Part shown: positions 26,889 to 63,050 of the stretch, piece by piece
Layout of the letters: each line of letters starts with the position of its first letter
Numbering within the stretch: the stretch's first letter is position 1
Source of the DNA: Mizuhopecten yessoensis
Lineage: Eukaryota
DNA length: 64,000 bases
Direction: 5' to 3'
Assembly: GCF_002113885.1 (NCBI RefSeq)
Contig: NW_018479978.1
Location: 1 to 64,000, forward strand
The notes under the pieces: generated by a model
What the model was told of the DNA's origin: nothing
Database searches by the model: none
The model's input: only the letters and a program-made list of their open reading frames with translations
Made by a program: the position numbers and the translations under genes

Positions 26889-27811
26889 AAACTGTCTAAG
26901 AAGTGAGAGAAAGGACAGGTGTCGAGGCCAATTAGGGCCGAGACCTGTTATTTCTCTCACTTATTGGACAGTTTGAGGCTTATATCTAACATAAAATATA
27001 GTCCCCTCTTGGTGCCTCCAATGCTGATTCTCTATTGGTGTTCACTGACCCATTTAACTTATTGGACATGTTCACTTCAAAGACTCCAACATCAGGCATG
27101 AGCTAAATTGCATGAATATGACAATAGGGTTCACTTTTATGAGAAGTTCTTTTTACACAACCAATAACATTTTCTATGTGACGTTTTGATGACTAGTATG
27201 ATATGTACACTGTCACCTTCATCAGACAAATGACCAATGAATCGAAGCGTATGCACACAAAGGTGTAAAATGTGTACAAGTTGTCCATAAAATCGATGTC
27301 GATTTCGGCTACGCTGGAAAAGTATGTACAATAGTTGTTATATATGTACCGAAATGACTTAATTCAGCTATGCTTTGTTAACACTTGGTCATAGATGTGC
27401 GAGAGTCTTTGAGCCCTCTCGTCTGATTTAGAACTGGCCCACTGCTGGGTATCCAGATGGCTTCCTTTATCTGCCGCTTGAACAGATTGCTCTCTCTGTC
27501 CAAAACTTTGGAGTTATCCCAGCCAATCACATGTTTCATATATAACAACTATTGTACATACGTTTCCAGCGTAGCCGAAATCAACATTGATTCACCTTTT
27601 ACTGTCCAATAAGTTAAATGGGTCAGTGAACACCAATAGAGAATTTGTTTCCTGAATCAGCATTGGAGGCACTCAGAGGGGACTATGTTTTAAGTTAGAT
27701 ATATTTAAGCCTCAAACTGTCCAATAAGTGAGAGAAAGAACAGGTCTCGGCCCTTACAGGCTCGACACCTGTCATTTTTCTCACTTATTAGACAGTTTTC
27801 AGCTTATATCC
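26889..27811. mobile_element. Fold-back non-autonomous element related to the Crypton terminus
   Basis: Outer inverted arms 26889-27068 / 27603-27798, each with an internal hairpin. Inner inverted repeat 27291-27346 / 27537-27592 (53/56 identical). It shares GGGGAC(T)ATGTTTTAAGT(T/A)AGATAT..AGCCT.AAACTGTC and TAGACAGTTTTC.GCTTATATCC with the Crypton end at 60488-60605. Confidence 0.75.
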
Positions 27812-55469: not shown

Positions 55470-58400
55470 ATGGCGACGTCCAAGAAGAAGAAGAAAGTTG
55501 TTTCCAAAGATGATTTGAGACGTTTGATGAAAGAGAAAAAGGCAACCGTTGCTACAACTAAACGCATAGAGCACCAATTTGCCAAGTAATAGTTTTTCAT
55601 GATTTACATAGGGTGTCACATTTTTTCAAATCATAAAACCAGCGTATTCCTAGCTATATCGTCTAGTCATATGTTTCCGCGCGTTATGTATTTCCGCGCA
55701 GACATTTTATCAAGCTATATCTCGTAACTACGTGACCTGCTGGACACAACACAATGATATTTTAGACGTTTGGCCATTGTCTGTAAGCTGACACAAACAT
55801 TACCGGAAGTTCGTCCAAAAAACATCAGAAATAATCACTGATTAAAAAAACACGCATTAAAATATGCAATATGGCTGCCACACCAAACTGTGTATCAAAT
55901 TCAATAATGCATTATGTTAGCGTTAAACATTCCCTGTCACAAAATAATCCTCCTCCAATATTTCATATTTCTAAAACATAATTGAGGTACATGCACACTA
56001 AATTTCAGAAAAAAACATTCAATAACTGATGAAAAACTCACTTTTTATATGTTCATTTTCCATGCTAAATAAAAGTAACAATTCAGGAAAGAAACCATTT
56101 AAACTCGTAAATATCATAAGGTTGGATGTCCATGGAGATGCATTTGTCGAGAAAAATGTGAGAAAATGCTTCAAATCTCGAGAATGATTTCCATTAGTAG
56201 ATATAAGTACACATGTTTATGACAGTATGATCCGTAATTTCAACAGTTTTCTGCCGATATGAGTACAAAATCGCAGTTGCTTCTTAAGTGCGCGGAAACC
56301 GGTAACACAAGGAAACCACTGTCATATCGCCCCCCCCCCTCCGATTCCAGCAATTTAGTTCTGTTATCTTCGCTTCATTACCTGGAGCTAAGTGATCAAA
56401 ACCTGTGTGGATGGTTTGGCCCTTTTCAACCATATACCTTAACAGCTGTTTACAATATTCAAAAATGAAAATGAATAAATCTATAAAATGTTGCAACAGG
56501 AAAGGAAGTTGGACACAAAGACACACATGGGTAATAATCTTGTAGTAGGTCGATGAATAGCTACAGTATAGTGATAAAGATATTGCCGTCGCTGGGGCTC
56601 GAACCCGCTACTTTTGGCTCTTCAGCTCAATGCTCTACTGCTGATCCCTACAGCTGACGCTTGTATACATACAGGTCAGGGAAAACCACTAACTTGCATA
56701 TAATACCCAAACTCGCCTATTATATGCATTATAGGGGTATGGATTTGTTACTAAAAATAGCCAAAATCACTTTAATCTTGGCTATTTCATTTTTTATGTC
56801 CAAGTCAAATTTATTCAGTCATGAAACATAATACAAATGCAAAAATAAACTTTATTTGCATGTGGGAAAGTACCAAAAATAGATGCAATACTTACGGTAA
56901 AGTTACATCAAGTTTCTAAGTAGCCAACGCTTTCAGTAAATATGTTTTAGCAAAATATTATTTACCTTGTCGTAAATTAATGCGATTTTTAATAATATCC
57001 TGCAAAAGTTACTGTTAAAGCGATTTGGGTTATTTTTAGTAACAAATCCATACTCCAACTGGCGTATAATGCATTGCAAAGGCAAATGTTGTTATGAGAC
57101 TATATTACTATAACAATTTAACGTTTGCTATTGTAACGTCATCAATTTCATTGTTGTCAAAACTTGATTTGCGGTTAAAAAACTGTTCAAAATAACTGAA
57201 TAAAGCATAATTACCGGTACTCTTATCAAAATGTAAATATAAATAAATAATATTTTAGCAAATGTTGTTCTGGTCCACTCCTATACACTAGCACACATTT
57301 CTATTGCTGACAAACTTACCGTACATAAAGCCCTGTACTGTTGTGGTGTGGATATTGATATAACTGATCAGTAAAATATACTTGACGTAACCAAAGATTT
57401 TGTGTTATAGGTATAACAGTGTCGACCAGCTTGTGTGTGTAATTTGTAATACAGTAATTAAAAGTGGACAATTGTGGCCATCACATCTACAGAGCAGACA
57501 GCATAAAGAGGTAATACTGTGTAATCATCTTTTGGAATCATAATTCAAAGCATAATCAGGGGTGATGTTTGAATCAAAATATTTCATTTGTATCAGGTTT
57601 AAATAAGAAATTTCACCATATAGTATGAATACAAGAAAAAGTATAATTTACATTGTAATTTGAGAAAATTGAGATAAATCATTGACAAGAATAGGAAAAT
57701 AGGGGATTTTTTCAAATATTGATTATTTCTAATATGAAATTTGTTAATGTTTAGTTCATCTCTTTAAAAATATCCAATATTCTTCTGAAAAGTTGACATA
57801 CAATTTAGATTCAGGTTTCCTAACCAAGTAATTTTTATTGAAAAATTGTAAATATTTCTGGTTTTTTTGGATAAATTCTATACCTCAGTTTTTATACTGA
57901 ATTATTTAGAATGTACATGTATAAGCCAGATGAAGATGACCTTCTTTTCAGAAGTCACTTTTCTTACATTGAGTGAAAAAATGGTCTATTTTCAGAATTT
58001 TGGAAATATATATGTCCATAAAAAGTGATTGCTTTACCCAATTGAAGACATTTAAATCTTTTAATATGATTTTCCATAGAAATTAACTCAAGTGAAGCCA
58101 GCTGTGGACACTTTTACCACTGGTGTGAAGAGGGGTCTCCCACAGCAGTCAAACAGTCATGAAGATTCTAAAAGACTTAGAGGTACATTTACTCACATAT
58201 CTTATTTACTAAGTTAAAGTGATATTGTATTTGTTCTTAAAACATTCTTGTGATGCCATCCATTGTTATAATTGTCCATTATATAGAATATGAGTACTGT
58301 TATATGCATAACTGTCCAATATGTTACAAAAACTGTCCAATAAGATCATAAAACTGTCCAATATTTTAATATTGTACAGTTTGTTAAAAATAACGGACAT

Positions 58401-61164
58401 GTTTTTGGACCAGTTTAAGTAGAACATAGAAACTGGAGCATGACAATATATCCATCAAAATTTAATTGCATTATTGAAACAATACAAAATTGACACAAGG
58501 GTGATCAATCCACTGGATATATACAGGTAAATCCACTGTTACAGATACAATGTACTCCCTTTTAGAATCTTAGGGTAAATGACACCTCACCCGCGCTAAC
58601 AGATAACTCCCTATTATTAGTATTAGTATTACTGGAGTCAGCAAGTTTTAATTTTTTCACTGGTGATGCCATATTTTCAATTCCTTGCACAACACTGCTA
58701 ACATTTGCCAGCTGCGCATCACATGTACGCTTATATGAACGAATGGCCGCTGACCGATGTCCAGTTTTTTCTGCCACTAATTGTTCGTCGAATCCTGCCT
58801 TATAGAGGCGTGTCGCAGCAGTCGCTCGTAGGGAATGGTTAGTGAAATATCCTTTAAATCCAGCCTCCTCACACAACTTCCCCACTGTCTGCTGCAAGAT
58901 ATGTACACCCAGTGGAGAATCACAGTACCAACAGTCCGGGCTGGGGGTCTTCTTTGGCCTTAGGTACAATGCACTGCATTTTCCGGTTTTTGGTCTGGAA
59001 GATTTTTAAATTGTAAACCTTAACAGTTAGAATGAAAAGGAAAATTGAAATTTTGTTTTAAAAAGGTAAAGTTCTATTTTCCAACATAATTAGGTCAAAA
59101 AAAAAATTTTTTCGAAATTCTGGACACATATATATATATTTTTTTTTTCAAATTTTAATTTTAATAAATGTGCTGTTATATTTAGCCACTGGATTTTATG
59201 ATAAGCGTTGCGCAATAACAATACATCTTAATACGGTATGATTATATTATATAACTTCTGTATTTACCTTAGGCTCATGAATTTCTGGTATATCTTCACA
59301 GGACATTGGTCTGGAAGTACTGTGTTTTCATAGGCCCTTGTAACTTTTGGTGTCACCTTACGATGGAGAAGTCCTCCGGCATTAGTTTTTGATACATCTT
59401 CTCTGTATTCCAAATATGTTTTGCCATCAGAATCCTGTTTCACTGTAATTTGACTATAAGGTCCACATCTAAGATTCCTATGTTCTTGGCCTGCTCTCAA
59501 TGCAAAATTCAAACCCAGTTGATACACTAATGTGTTTAAAAGTTTTTCTGGTGTGTCTGTCCCCAAGACACCTTTCTCCACATTAACTGCTCTTGTTCTT
59601 CCGTTATAATTTCTGCCTGCTTTTTGTTTATTCCCAAACCTTGTTTTGCGAGGTTTTTCATCCAGGCGTCTAGTACCCCTCTCAGTCCTGCAAACTCTGT
59701 ATCATCCAAAATATTCACAAAACGTCCATTTTGCCGAAAATAATGTTGTATAGATATAATTAATTCATACAGTGTGTTTGGTCTGTACTCCTCACCATTC
59801 TTATTTCGAACTTCAGCTACAAAATAAGTCAGAGCCTCATTAATATCGGAGACAGGTAAATCCAGTAAGTTGTTAGGAAAGTTTTTCAGCTTTTCATTGT
59901 TTTTGGATTGTATCAGTCGCTGTTCAATCCATGAATCAAAAACTTTTAAAGCCCATTTCGTTTTGTTTTCTGTGTTTACACATGATTCTCCAGCAACAAT
60001 TTTTTTCAAATCACCATCCTGCATGGGAATTGCAAATCGTCGCCGTGTTTCAACTTCTTCAACAACTTGAGTTATTTCTGTCATTTCATCTTCCGAGATG
60101 TCTGAGAACATCTCACTTAAAATGTTGAAATTTGGCCGAGGTGTAATATTTTCCTTCTGTAAATCCAGGACATCACTTAATATCTCATCTGTATCTACAA
60201 CAGTATTTTCTGTTGTAAATGTTGACTGTGTTAAAAATACTCCTTCACTATCGGAACTCATGATTGGAATGAGATAAGTACTATACCTGGGTGTATTTCA
60301 TACCTGGTATATGCAGTTGCATACAAATCATGCAAAGTGAGATTGATATACATGACTGACCTCAGTATACAGTGTAGTTGAAAAACTGTCCAATATGTTA
60401 TGAATAGCTTTCACGGTAATTGATTCATAGTGAAACTGTCCAATATTATCACAATGCACCAAAACACTGATCACAATTGATACAATAGGGGACATGTTTT
60501 AAGTAAGATATAAGCCTAAAACTGTCTATTATGTAAAATATTGGACAGTCTGAGGCGCTAAACTGTCCAATATTTTACATAATAGACAGTTTTCGGCTTA
60601 TATCCTTTACATAATGAGTTAATGTATAATGATAGAAATAGAAAATAGAGAAATTCTATGTTTTCAGTGCCAGATGCTGATTTGTACAGGTCATATTTGT
60701 TTGCCTTATTTGATCTTTTAATCCTTCAAATTTATGCCTTAATGGGATATTAAACTTAAGTGGAATTTCTTCCAAGGCCTGCAAAATTACTATATACTCC
60801 CCTGCTTAGACAAGACATTCTTAGAAAATACCTTTTAAATTTCATATGTAGAGAGTACAAATAGCTTAGTACTTACTGTTCAGTTTATTTGACATGGGAT
60901 GTGGTTATACAAATATATGTTATAGATACTATTAAAGACTGTTCGGGTTCAGTAAAACCCTTTTGTATTTGTATGTTTGCTGTGTTTTGCTGCAATCATA
61001 TAATTGTCAAATTATTTATATTACATGTATATGCATAATAATACTTTGTATGTATTTTTTGAGTCTGGTATAGAGGGCTTATGTATAAGCCCTGAACTGG
61101 AAATAAACTTATCTTATCTTATTACAGGAAATGGTCAATCAGCCAAATCTTCAACAAATTCGGG
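55470..61164 (+). CDS. ZNF830: Zinc finger protein 830 (CCDC16), 5' part; continues beyond the last exon found
   Basis: Exons 55470-55585 (MATSKKKKKVVSKDDLRRLMKEKK..KRIEHQFAK), 57411-57510 (YNSVDQLVCVICNTVIKSGQLWPSHLQSRQHKE, C2H2 finger), 58080-58182 and a probable 37-nt exon at 61128-61164. The LRRLMKEK..RIE..FAKYN..C..C..W..H....H motif is characteristic of ZNF830. Confidence 0.88.
56734..57056. mobile_element. MITE-like inverted-repeat element in ZNF830 intron 1
   Basis: About 42-bp imperfect inverted repeat, 56734-56775 / 57015-57056 (GTATGGATTTGTTACTAAAAATA). Confidence 0.6.
58230..60615 (-). mobile_element. Crypton DNA transposon inside ZNF830 intron 3 (antisense)
   Basis: The YR gene is flanked by AACTGTCCAATA boxes (58310, 58331, 58352; 60384, 60434, 60561) and a hairpin with 43-bp arms (60507-60549 / 60562-60604). 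Boundaries are approximate and no TSD was seen. Confidence 0.8.
58562..60261 (-). pseudogene. Crypton-type tyrosine recombinase (DUF3504/ZMYM-QRICH1-like plus integrase core), 2 exons, one 1-nt frameshift
   Basis: Exon 60261-59268, GT-AG intron 59267-58995, exon 58994-58562. The frame shifts at about 59578 (ATG TGG AGA AAG where W-E-K-G-V-L-G is expected); adding one G gives 475 aa. Catalytic residues are present: FALRAGQEH (R), NHSLR (HxxR), TGHRS (H) and RSYKR (Y). Confidence 0.9.
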
Positions 61165-61489
61165 GTGAGTAAACTGGTCAGGTTATAATAATATATCAAA
61201 TAAATTTGTCTTGCAATTAATAGTTTATAATGATTGATAATTTCAAAAACAAGGCTACCTGGTTTAATATATCAACAGAAGGAACAGCATGAGTGCCTTA
61301 TACATGTATTATCAAACGTCAACCAAACTGATTTGCAAAACAGGTAAGCCATATAAACAATAGAAATGTGGTACATGTAGTACAATTTTTGACAGGCACA
61401 GTCTGTTAGAACAATATTAATCACATGTAAAATAGAAAATGATTTACCTGACTTCAGAATGTTTGAAAGTCATCCAAGTTTTCCAGCAT

Positions 61490-62063
61490 GGCCAACACAT
61501 CATGCTAATTGACTACAGGTCATCGTCAAGGATAATACCCTGGCCGACACATCATGCTAATTGACTATAGGTCATCGTCAAGGATAATACCCTGGCCGAC
61601 ACATCATGCTAATTGACTATAGGTCATCGTCAAGGATAATACCCTGGCCGACACATCATGCTAATTGACTCCAGGTCATCGTCAAGGATAACACCATGGC
61701 CGACACATCATGCTAATTGACTCCAGGTCATCGTCAAGGATAATACCATGGCCGACACATCATGCTAAGTGACTACAGGTCATCGGAAAGGATAATACCA
61801 TGGCCGACACATCATGCTAAGTGACTACAGGTCATCCTCAAGGATAATACCATGGCCGACCCATCATGCTAAGTGACTACAGGCCATCATCAAGGATAAT
61901 ACCATTGCCGACACATCATGCTAAGTGACTACAGGTCATCGTCATGGATAATACCATGGCCGACACATCATTCTAAGTGACTTCAGGTCATCGTCAAGGA
62001 TAATTCCATGGCCGACACATCATGCTAAGTGACTACAGGTCATCGTCAAGGATAATACCATTG
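61490..62063. repeat. 52-bp minisatellite, about 11 copies
   Basis: GGCCGACACATCATGCTAA(T/G)TGACTACAGGTCATCGTCAAGGATAATACCAT at 61542, 61594 and onward. Confidence 0.95.
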
Positions 62064-62700
62064 GGCACTTTATTCCAATATTGATATGCAAACAGAAGGA
62101 GGAAGTAGAAAAGTATAGAAATTGGGTCAAAGGTCAGGGTTGTATTGCTTAGTTTAAAGGGTTTTGAATTATGAAAACCTCTCATCACAAAAGTGAAAAC
62201 TTTCAAGGTCCTTAACCAAGATTTTAGAAAGACTGCAATGGTGGAAAGTCAAAATTCAAGGTTGCAAGGCAATCTTTTTGAAATGCATGCATGGAATTTA
62301 GTTGTTGGAAGAAAAAAACCAGTGTAATAAAATTGTGCCTTCTTGTATGGAAAGCCGTTATTTGGTACCAGAACTTAAGAGTTCGATCAAGTACAAGGAT
62401 GGTGTTTATTCAGTTACATACCATATACATATCAGTATACAGAATTCAATTACGTACAATTTACATATCAGTATACTGAATACAATTACATAATCCCGTC
62501 ACCAAAGCATATGAGTCGAGTCGTACTATGCTATCATGAAAATCCTACTTGAACAATACAGTATAGCTATCATAAACACGAGGAATAATTTATCAATAAT
62601 GAAATATATGCTCGGGAGCTTAACCGTTAAAAATAAGCCTTACATGTACATTGTTTTCCTGTGAGTTCGAATTCACGACTCACCACAGGTTATGATTAAT

Positions 62701-63050
62701 AGAATCTTTCACCCCTTGGGGGTGAGATAGGAGAATCTCAACCCGAGGGGGAGGATTCTTAAGTTGCCAAACACGAGGCTTTGCCGAGTGTTTGGCAACT
62801 AAAGAATCTTTCCCCGAGGGTTGAGATTCCACTATCTCACCCACAAGGGGGTGAATGATTCTTTTTCTCTTACCCTGTTCTTTCATTGTGTATCATATGC
62901 ACAATGTAATGATAACGTTACATGCTAAATTCAGGGTTGACGTGACGTTGATGGATTGTTGACNCCCCCCCCCCCGTCTCAGCCCTAGGGTGAGACAAGG
63001 AAATCTCACACCGGTAAAAATGTGGATACACCTGTCCAGGGTAAGAGAAA
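62701..63050. mobile_element. Hairpin-terminated non-autonomous element (Crypton-like MITE)
   Basis: About 75-bp inverted arms (62701-62774 / 62788-62862) around CGAGGCTTTGCCGAG, plus a second inverted pair TTTCTCTTACCCTG (62864-62877) / CAGGGTAAGAGAAA (63037-63050). Confidence 0.65.

Follow-up and report, generated by a model that had tools for sequence, protein, structure and literature searches.

A Putative CryptonA-Type Transposon Family of Mizuhopecten yessoensis With Terminal Hairpins, a Symmetric Target and One-Sided Insertion Products

Introduction

Crypton transposition lacks experimental demonstration, and a double-stranded circle has been assumed for it (review of September 2026, PMC13565253, in its accessible text). 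For animal Cryptons, no terminal repeats are reported in the accessible parts of Kojima and Jurka (2011; PMC3212892), where they are listed as not determined. Later Crypton papers describe, in the portions available, only short direct repeats (PMC13465315; PMC8969392), and the available text of PMC5753468 and PMC8268682 does not describe Crypton hairpins. Within the openly accessible literature searched, a scope that stops short of Repbase notes and subscription papers, we found nothing linking Crypton ends to hairpins or to single-strand recombination. Crypton-derived Eulor repeats are reportedly self-complementary. The attC sites of integrons undergo recombination as folded single strands, according to the accessible text of PMC5027507.

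Here we analyze a stretch of 64,000 nt (hereafter the window) comprising positions 1 to 64,000 of the forward strand of M. yessoensis contig NW_018479978.1 (assembly GCF_002113885.1). A first-pass annotation, made from the sequence alone, had recognized in it a young, near-intact, spliced Crypton recombinase gene nested antisense in a ZNF830 intron and broken by one missing base.

Results

The Window Copy and Its Host Gene

The three ORFs of the window Crypton lie where the first-pass annotation had placed them, and its reading of three frames joined through a GT-AG intron and a single-base loss was borne out. On the minus strand, recombinase exon 1 (59268..60261), which carries the core-binding QRICH1-type domain and part of DUF3504, is followed by a 273-nt GT..AG intron (59267-58995) and by exon 2 (58562..58994) with the HxxR, H, and Y residues. 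A Pfam scan matched the three recombinase pieces, in order, to QRICH1 PF25561 (1e-20), DUF3504 PF12012 (2e-17), and Phage_integrase PF00589 (6e-9), the latter two being families that the annotation had named. The spliced joint 58994/59268 is present in contigs from three of the four RNA-type runs, which come from four studies and of which three were classed as RNA by guess only. The annotated span of 58562..60261 stands as the coding part, and the whole element reaches further, covering 2374 bp at 58237..60610 (minus strand): sister copies cease to match the window at 58237 and at about 60610-60613, and both ends were confirmed by sister-copy empty sites.

The host gene is ZNF830, on the plus strand, with a C2H2 finger at 57412-57510 (exon 57411..57510), an exon at approximately 58078..58183 that lies about 55 bp from the far end of the element, and a next exon at approximately 61126..61164, the element sitting in the intron that precedes it. 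The ZNF380_CC domain (PF23406) of ZNF830 is encoded in three exons past the window end, and a GT..AG joint from 58180 to 61126, found in all four RNA-type runs, spans the Crypton, confirming its antisense position in a ZNF830 intron. Contigs from all four DNA runs cross both host-element junctions, and no empty-site joint at the ZNF830 insertion is listed among the contigs of these runs, which drop rare forms; the insertion is therefore taken as common to the samples, one of which may be the assembly's own source. A tandem repeat of 52-bp period, its units 91-93% alike, occupies window positions 61470-62060.

Sister Copies, the Frameshift, and an Intact Gene

The M. yessoensis genome holds at least six near-full copies of the window family and many deleted ones. 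Substitutions between the window copy and five near-full sisters amount to 0.24-1.53%, in line with the youth claimed for the insertion, and the dispersal of the sister copies agrees with the view of a mobile, multi-copy element rather than a domesticated one. Domestication of the window Crypton is excluded by the multi-copy family and the complete catalytic residues.

The window copy is one base short at about 59577-59579 (minus strand), and its frame ends after 241 aa. The G run at the lesion is short (two versus three G), and the annotation had raised an assembly error here, by which the window copy itself would be intact and active, a reading that we consider very improbable. The base missing from the window is present in all four RNA-type runs and, for each of the four DNA runs, in the main contig, but such contigs merge every copy of the family. 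Among 14 distinct places covering the lesion site, the base is absent from three (the window, L004, and L005), and these three have the letters at 59584 and 59664 in common and lie in unrelated flanks. Because the base loss and the linked substitutions are common to three loci with different flanks, the loss is inherited.

The 475-aa protein reconstructed for the window does exist as a complete frame, in the sister copy L002, whose exons match those of the window at 98-100% and which alone reads through among the six near-full copies; the frame of L006 stops at 356 aa, and L003 has 11-nt and 1-nt losses. L002 carries R256, K292, H385, R388, H411, and Y419, which we take to be the catalytic residues of a tyrosine recombinase. 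Judged from its sequence, L002 is likely a working recombinase gene, so that the active enzyme suspected behind the lesion would be encoded at this other locus and not by the frameshifted window copy. The presence of the frameshifted sub-lineage at three loci suggests movement in trans, and the window copy was likely mobilized in this way by an intact sister. Taken alone, the window object is ordinary: it is real and of a known kind, but dead.

The longest RNA-type contig (X15) fits the damaged L003 type, and a further contig (X12) is without any other gap over 59312-60517. In RNA-type contigs from as many as three runs, L003 (G000:C76751:1460998-1463287), although damaged, shows up spliced and flanked by host sequence on either side; its RNA is probably read-through from a host transcript. 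The two frameshifted sisters L004 and L005 both stop at window position 58420 and continue into unrelated DNA. Read on the other strand, the site at 58420 is similar to the junction of the element itself, and in L008 a hairpin end is inserted there. In a diverged copy, L011/L017 (G000:C1291:117477-120041), an 80-bp piece of its exon 2 is repeated in a long tandem array.

Element Ends and the Terminal Hairpin

At one end only, the element carries an imperfect hairpin of ~55 bp (60499..60610; 43-nt arms, 98% complementary; fold z = -15); this and the following end features are read on the minus strand. The tip (60550-60561) is shortened in the window copy relative to the intact sister tip, in which a tandem G.A mismatch is topped by a 5-bp stem and a GTA loop. 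In DNA, GNA loops and sheared G.A pairs are stable. The first element bases (60604..60610) form the outer spacer (7 nt) of the recombination site that the element itself carries and, in the folded strand, face an inner 5-nt spacer (60503..60507). Adjoining the latter is an inner base of 9 nt (60494..60502), the exact complement of the far end (58237..58245), which ends in TTTTAA and is intact in 20 of the 21 rows of the window family. A 10-nt motif stands in three subterminal copies (58311..58362, no strand assigned), which likely serve as extra binding sites, and is found again in each arm of the hairpin and at 60385 and 60435. An older non-autonomous family has both ends in common with the window family.

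The hairpin varies among young copies. Its tip is intact in 3 of 14 and altered in the other 11; flips and perfected arms occur, 4 of the 14 begin at the tip, and losses run both ways from it. The altered hairpin of the window copy is found at a second proper insertion (L013), which indicates that an intact tip is not needed in cis. In L008 and L042, the outer arm alone extends to the tip, each time behind a TTTAA flank that matches the far end of the element; these two may be aberrant products of a full match between target and donor. Left flanks ending in TTTAA number 4 of 51.

Target Sites and Insertion Products

Flanking host sequence was compared across copies, with counts pooled after removal of duplicates. 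Of 51 distinct left flanks, 42 have TA at positions -3/-2, and of 52 distinct far-end flanks, 35 have it at +8/+9; counts at the other 15 flank positions are 3-13. The signal is found both in the window family (16/18) and in an unrelated family, C (10/12). The target is thus TAN|N6|NTA, in which two boxes enclose six free bases. The window copy's own target fits, with the host-derived left half TAN at 60611..60613 and the host-derived spacer and right half (N6 + NTA) at 58228..58236, both on the minus strand. In a blind scan of TA offsets, +2 did not stand out: hairpins numbered 10 there, 10 at 0, and 8 at -2. An earlier reading of bottom-strand cleavage, taken from a 2-3-nt homology, was dropped after the +8/+9 TA signal appeared.

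Empty paralogous sites place the insertion point exactly. For L009, all 11 such sites show insertion right after TAN, with neither duplication nor loss; the left flank of L002 is common to 3 of 11 paralogues, all three of which fit insertion after TAN without duplication, as do two empty paralogous sites of L113. Target-site duplication is excluded by these three loci. The element ends are defined to the base, with a hairpin at one terminus, internal sequence complementary to the far end, and a target that is symmetric.

By established chemistry, the top-strand cut of a tyrosine recombinase falls at the left edge of a spacer of this kind (PMC5871717, accessible text). Exchange of the top strand alone predicts TAN followed by the element spacer on the left, and the element's TAA followed by the target spacer on the right. 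All copies have this one-strand exchange form, and the reciprocal form, in which the element spacer and then host DNA would follow the far end, was found in 0 of 52. In the remaining row of 53, L118, far end and hairpin end meet in a complete junction, identical to the one expected from the empty site of L113. In L155 and L216, an element is inserted head-to-tail at the far end of a previous element, which fits the far-end junction still being a target. A reading of L216 as a circular contig was rejected.

Other Families, Site Geometry, and Hairpin Polarity

A protein search of the M. yessoensis genome returned other young Crypton families (B, C, D, E, F, G, and H), each with a terminal hairpin of different sequence; in family C the gene is reversed relative to the window family. 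Among 20 further Crypton hits in this genome, five have clear hairpins of the same design beside the gene, three are doubtful, and the rest have none. An HMMER search recovered 6108 relatives, and a word-index protein search yielded no longer relatives among 1045 candidates. In metagenomes, scanned with a 12-sequence alignment (a 43-sequence alignment was too loose and a single-protein scan found nothing), a hairpin lies upstream of the gene in 19 of 50 loci; none was found in the other 31, many of them on short contigs.

With both ends joined, the order is TAA, 7 nt, box along the outer arm and box, 5 nt, far-end complement along the inner arm. The 7 nt from left end to outer box and the 5 nt from inner box to far-end complement hold in all eight rows from the own genome, which have 38-100% protein identity where measured and in six of which the left end is fixed by multi-copy flanks. 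The 2-nt excess of the outer arm recurs in 10 of 11 metagenome rows anchored by eye, and the eleventh fits by eye. Complementarity between inner base and far end extends over 8-12 nt in seven of the eight own-genome rows and over 9-11 nt in 3 of the 11 metagenome rows, while the letters themselves differ from row to row. As a duplex, neither arm of the element's own site has the 6-bp spacing of the target, and the spacing comes near 6 only when the strand is folded.

Mismatch polarity was scored in 27 hairpins (8 own-genome plus 19 metagenome, related families not being independent), all read hairpin-first. A tandem G.A mismatch occurs on this strand in 23 of 27 and a tandem T.C in none, with G.A outnumbering C.T oppositions 122 to 13, and the polarity holds for either gene direction, as the reversed family C illustrates. 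The count omitted the window copy, family A2 (close to A), additional overlapping calls of L212 and L219, another hairpin of L191 that lies farther off and is rich in T.C on the hairpin-first strand, and hairpins downstream of the gene (L173, L206, L211, L214, and L216). The hairpin-first strand has the more stable fold in 23 of the 27 hairpins.

The predicted structure of a family B protein (pLDDT 92) was compared with known recombinases using Foldseek and re-alignment. The model comes closest to Cre (Z 17.8, rmsd 5.4, 275 aligned), with Xer at Z 16.9 and IntI, also among the matches, at Z 13.7 (rmsd 5.1, 244 aligned); the modeled fold ranks nearest to Cre and QRICH1, with IntI lower.

Family C (L110-L119) numbers ten or more copies with about 99% likeness, and most of them have a long frame (up to 506 aa) that is open and free of introns, the gene pointing toward the hairpin; a tip deletion is common to 7 of the 10 copies. 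It offers a good second test enzyme. The window itself contains two related hairpins facing away from each other, at 26889-26974 (plus strand) and 27703-27809 (minus strand), with the same arm motif, tandem G.A tips, and 73% likeness to the family A end; these are probably gene-less Crypton ends. A long hairpin with several G.A mismatches lies at 62685-62878 (plus strand), inside the ZNF830 gene span, and similar hairpins in L126 and L167 point to an abundant gene-less family.

Discussion

A Folded-Strand Model and Its Alternatives

We think it somewhat probable that the Crypton recombinase acts on a folded single strand of the element, as in integrons, with the outcome resolved by replication. 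The hairpin-first strand would fold once single-stranded, for example at a replication fork, and its inner base would pair with the outer-end sequence to form a site of two boxes whose centre is lopsided (7/5 nt). A single exchange of strands between the end folded in this way and the duplex far end would release a single-strand circle in which far end and hairpin end are linked. In the circle, this fold could then recombine with duplex TAN-N6-NTA through one strand exchange, at the left edge of the target's 6-bp spacer, and replication would resolve the junction, one daughter gaining the element while the donor can keep its copy. We favor this model because of the symmetry of the target, the empty sites, and the one-sided product, together with the 7/5 spacing, the complement between inner base and far end, the G.A polarity, and the head-to-tail insertions. 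The prevalence of altered tips among young copies counts against it, as does the small gap in folding energy between the two strands (0.4-1 kcal/mol in the window family). Also weighing against it are the family B model, which scores higher with Cre than with IntI, the blind TA-offset scan, and the many Crypton loci at which no such hairpin was found. Contigs of the four DNA runs list no end-to-end circle joint, and no free circle or single strand was seen in them. In a wider form, about which we are evenly divided, animal Cryptons would be self-mobilizing integron-like cassettes, whose enzyme reads the lopsided 7/5 centre and the one-strand G.A mismatches in a folded single-stranded circle and inserts it into any TAN-N6-NTA without double-strand break or duplication.

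An unlikely but serious competitor is a duplex circle of the Tn916/Tn1549 or Vibrio SE kind, excised or copied out and integrated without spacer homology, in which strand-biased cleavage or repair makes the product one-sided and the hairpin has some other role, such as origin of replication, array of binding sites, or additional inverted site. The target, with AT-rich arms around six free bases, resembles the TTTT-n6-AAAA of Tn1549, whose integrase accepts 5-7-nt crossovers on double-stranded circles (PMC5871717, accessible text), so that a 7-bp junction alone does not demand folding. Vibrio SEs circularize one strand with no folded site reported in the accessible text (PMC9345347), and Starships use circles, as far as the available part of the preprint goes (bioRxiv 10.64898/2026.09.21.753150). 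The Cre/Xer-like fold of the recombinase and the continued movement of copies with altered hairpins (L001/L013) also suit a duplex circle. What this leaves unexplained is the letter-for-letter tracking of the far end by the inner base across families, the 2-nt excess always falling on the outer arm, and the confinement of G.A mismatches to one strand; moreover, a two-strand exchange plus replication should yield both products, and the reciprocal one is missing.

Parvoviruses and telomere-resolvase replicons use hairpin-primed or hairpin-capped replication, and a rolling-hairpin or hairpin-telomere mode would have the hairpin prime fold-back synthesis or cap a linear intermediate, with the recombinase resolving a replicated palindrome. 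Tip and arm mismatches in both orientations, young copies that start at the tip, and frequently perfected arms are in keeping with such a mode, and L118 resembles fold-back synthesis through a junction. We nevertheless hold it to be improbable, since the long hairpin is present at one end only and insertion is precise, with a symmetric target and a fixed crossover. Palindromes undergo template switching and centre-break repair, which explain the flips and the tip losses, running in both directions, without a role in transposition. The folded single strand remains our preferred reading.

As test material, the family offers ends known exactly, a rule for the target, a junction that was predicted and occurs once in the genome, a spliced gene that is intact, and natural mini-elements of 200-1400 bp. 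With ends, target, and crossover defined to the base, the question of mechanism is directly testable. If the folded-strand model is true, single-strand tyrosine recombination is not confined to bacteria and phages, and a eukaryotic tyrosine recombinase would work on folded single-stranded DNA, with L002 as a natural intact gene for testing it. Many G.A-marked hairpin repeats of animal genomes would then gain an origin, and a small duplication-free integrase would become available for study.

Comparison With Known Systems

By the sequence marks compared, the window element is classed as a CryptonA-type transposon. It encodes a single DUF3504-type tyrosine recombinase, with no reverse transcriptase or DDE gene, a complete R-H-R-Y tetrad, and an exon 1 that aligns with relatives; it forms a dispersed multi-copy family with non-autonomous derivatives; and it has neither target-site duplication nor TIRs, the sole end complementarity being that of 9 nt between inner base and far end. 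The full tetrad, a length of about 2.0-2.4 kb, the animal host, the non-autonomous derivatives, and the lack of target duplication are all shared with CryptonA as described in the accessible parts of PMC3212892 and PMC13465315. The terminal hairpin, the inner far-end complement, and the symmetric target set the window family apart from published CryptonA (PMC3212892, accessible parts). The Pfam scan showed neither GCR1_C nor any other conserved C-terminal domain in exon 2, which separates the element from CryptonF and CryptonS. The identical 4-6-bp direct repeats found at both ends of fungal and oomycete Cryptons (F, S) are also absent here (TAT/TAC on the left versus TAA at the far end). Nor does the element share the single copy number, lost catalytic residues, and host-domain fusion of domesticated DUF3504 genes (ZMYM/QRICH1/KCTD1).

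CryptonF-1_cRei of Chlamydomonas is an active Crypton whose clean excision with rising copy number fits a replicative model, and the folded-strand model as well; it differs in recombining a CACCG end with a near-identical CAYCG target, and no hairpin is mentioned in the available text (PMC9977147). Vibrio SEs are likewise tyrosine-recombinase elements in which one specific strand is circularized, with a 6-bp segment at a fixed side, but they are bacterial, have four core genes, leave no empty donor site, and come with no description of a folded site in the accessible text (PMC9345347).

Likeness to integron attC sites, at the level of sequence, lies in the imperfect hairpin, the unpaired centre between two boxes, and the strand-specific mismatches (PMC5027507; PMC3458562, in the parts available). 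Recovery of the first-strand exchange product alone is integron-like as well, and so are the head-to-tail stacking of elements and, if the model holds for Cryptons, a single strand exchange with a duplex partner and replicative resolution (PMC5027507, accessible text). Unlike integrons, the Crypton encodes its enzyme inside the mobile unit; among the fold matches of the family B model, IntI ranks below Cre and Xer. Its site is made of two ends plus an internal complement, with a 7/5-nt centre and tandem G.A as marks, and it targets any TAN-N6-NTA at dispersed places instead of a single attI platform with GTTRRRY core sites.

With Tn916/Tn1549, the element has in common a tyrosine transposase, an AT-rich symmetric target around six non-homologous bases, and insertion without duplication. 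The crossover bases of Tn916/Tn1549 vary, being derived from the last donor site, whereas the 7-nt spacer of the Crypton is fixed and always stands at the hairpin end (comparison with the accessible text of PMC5871717).
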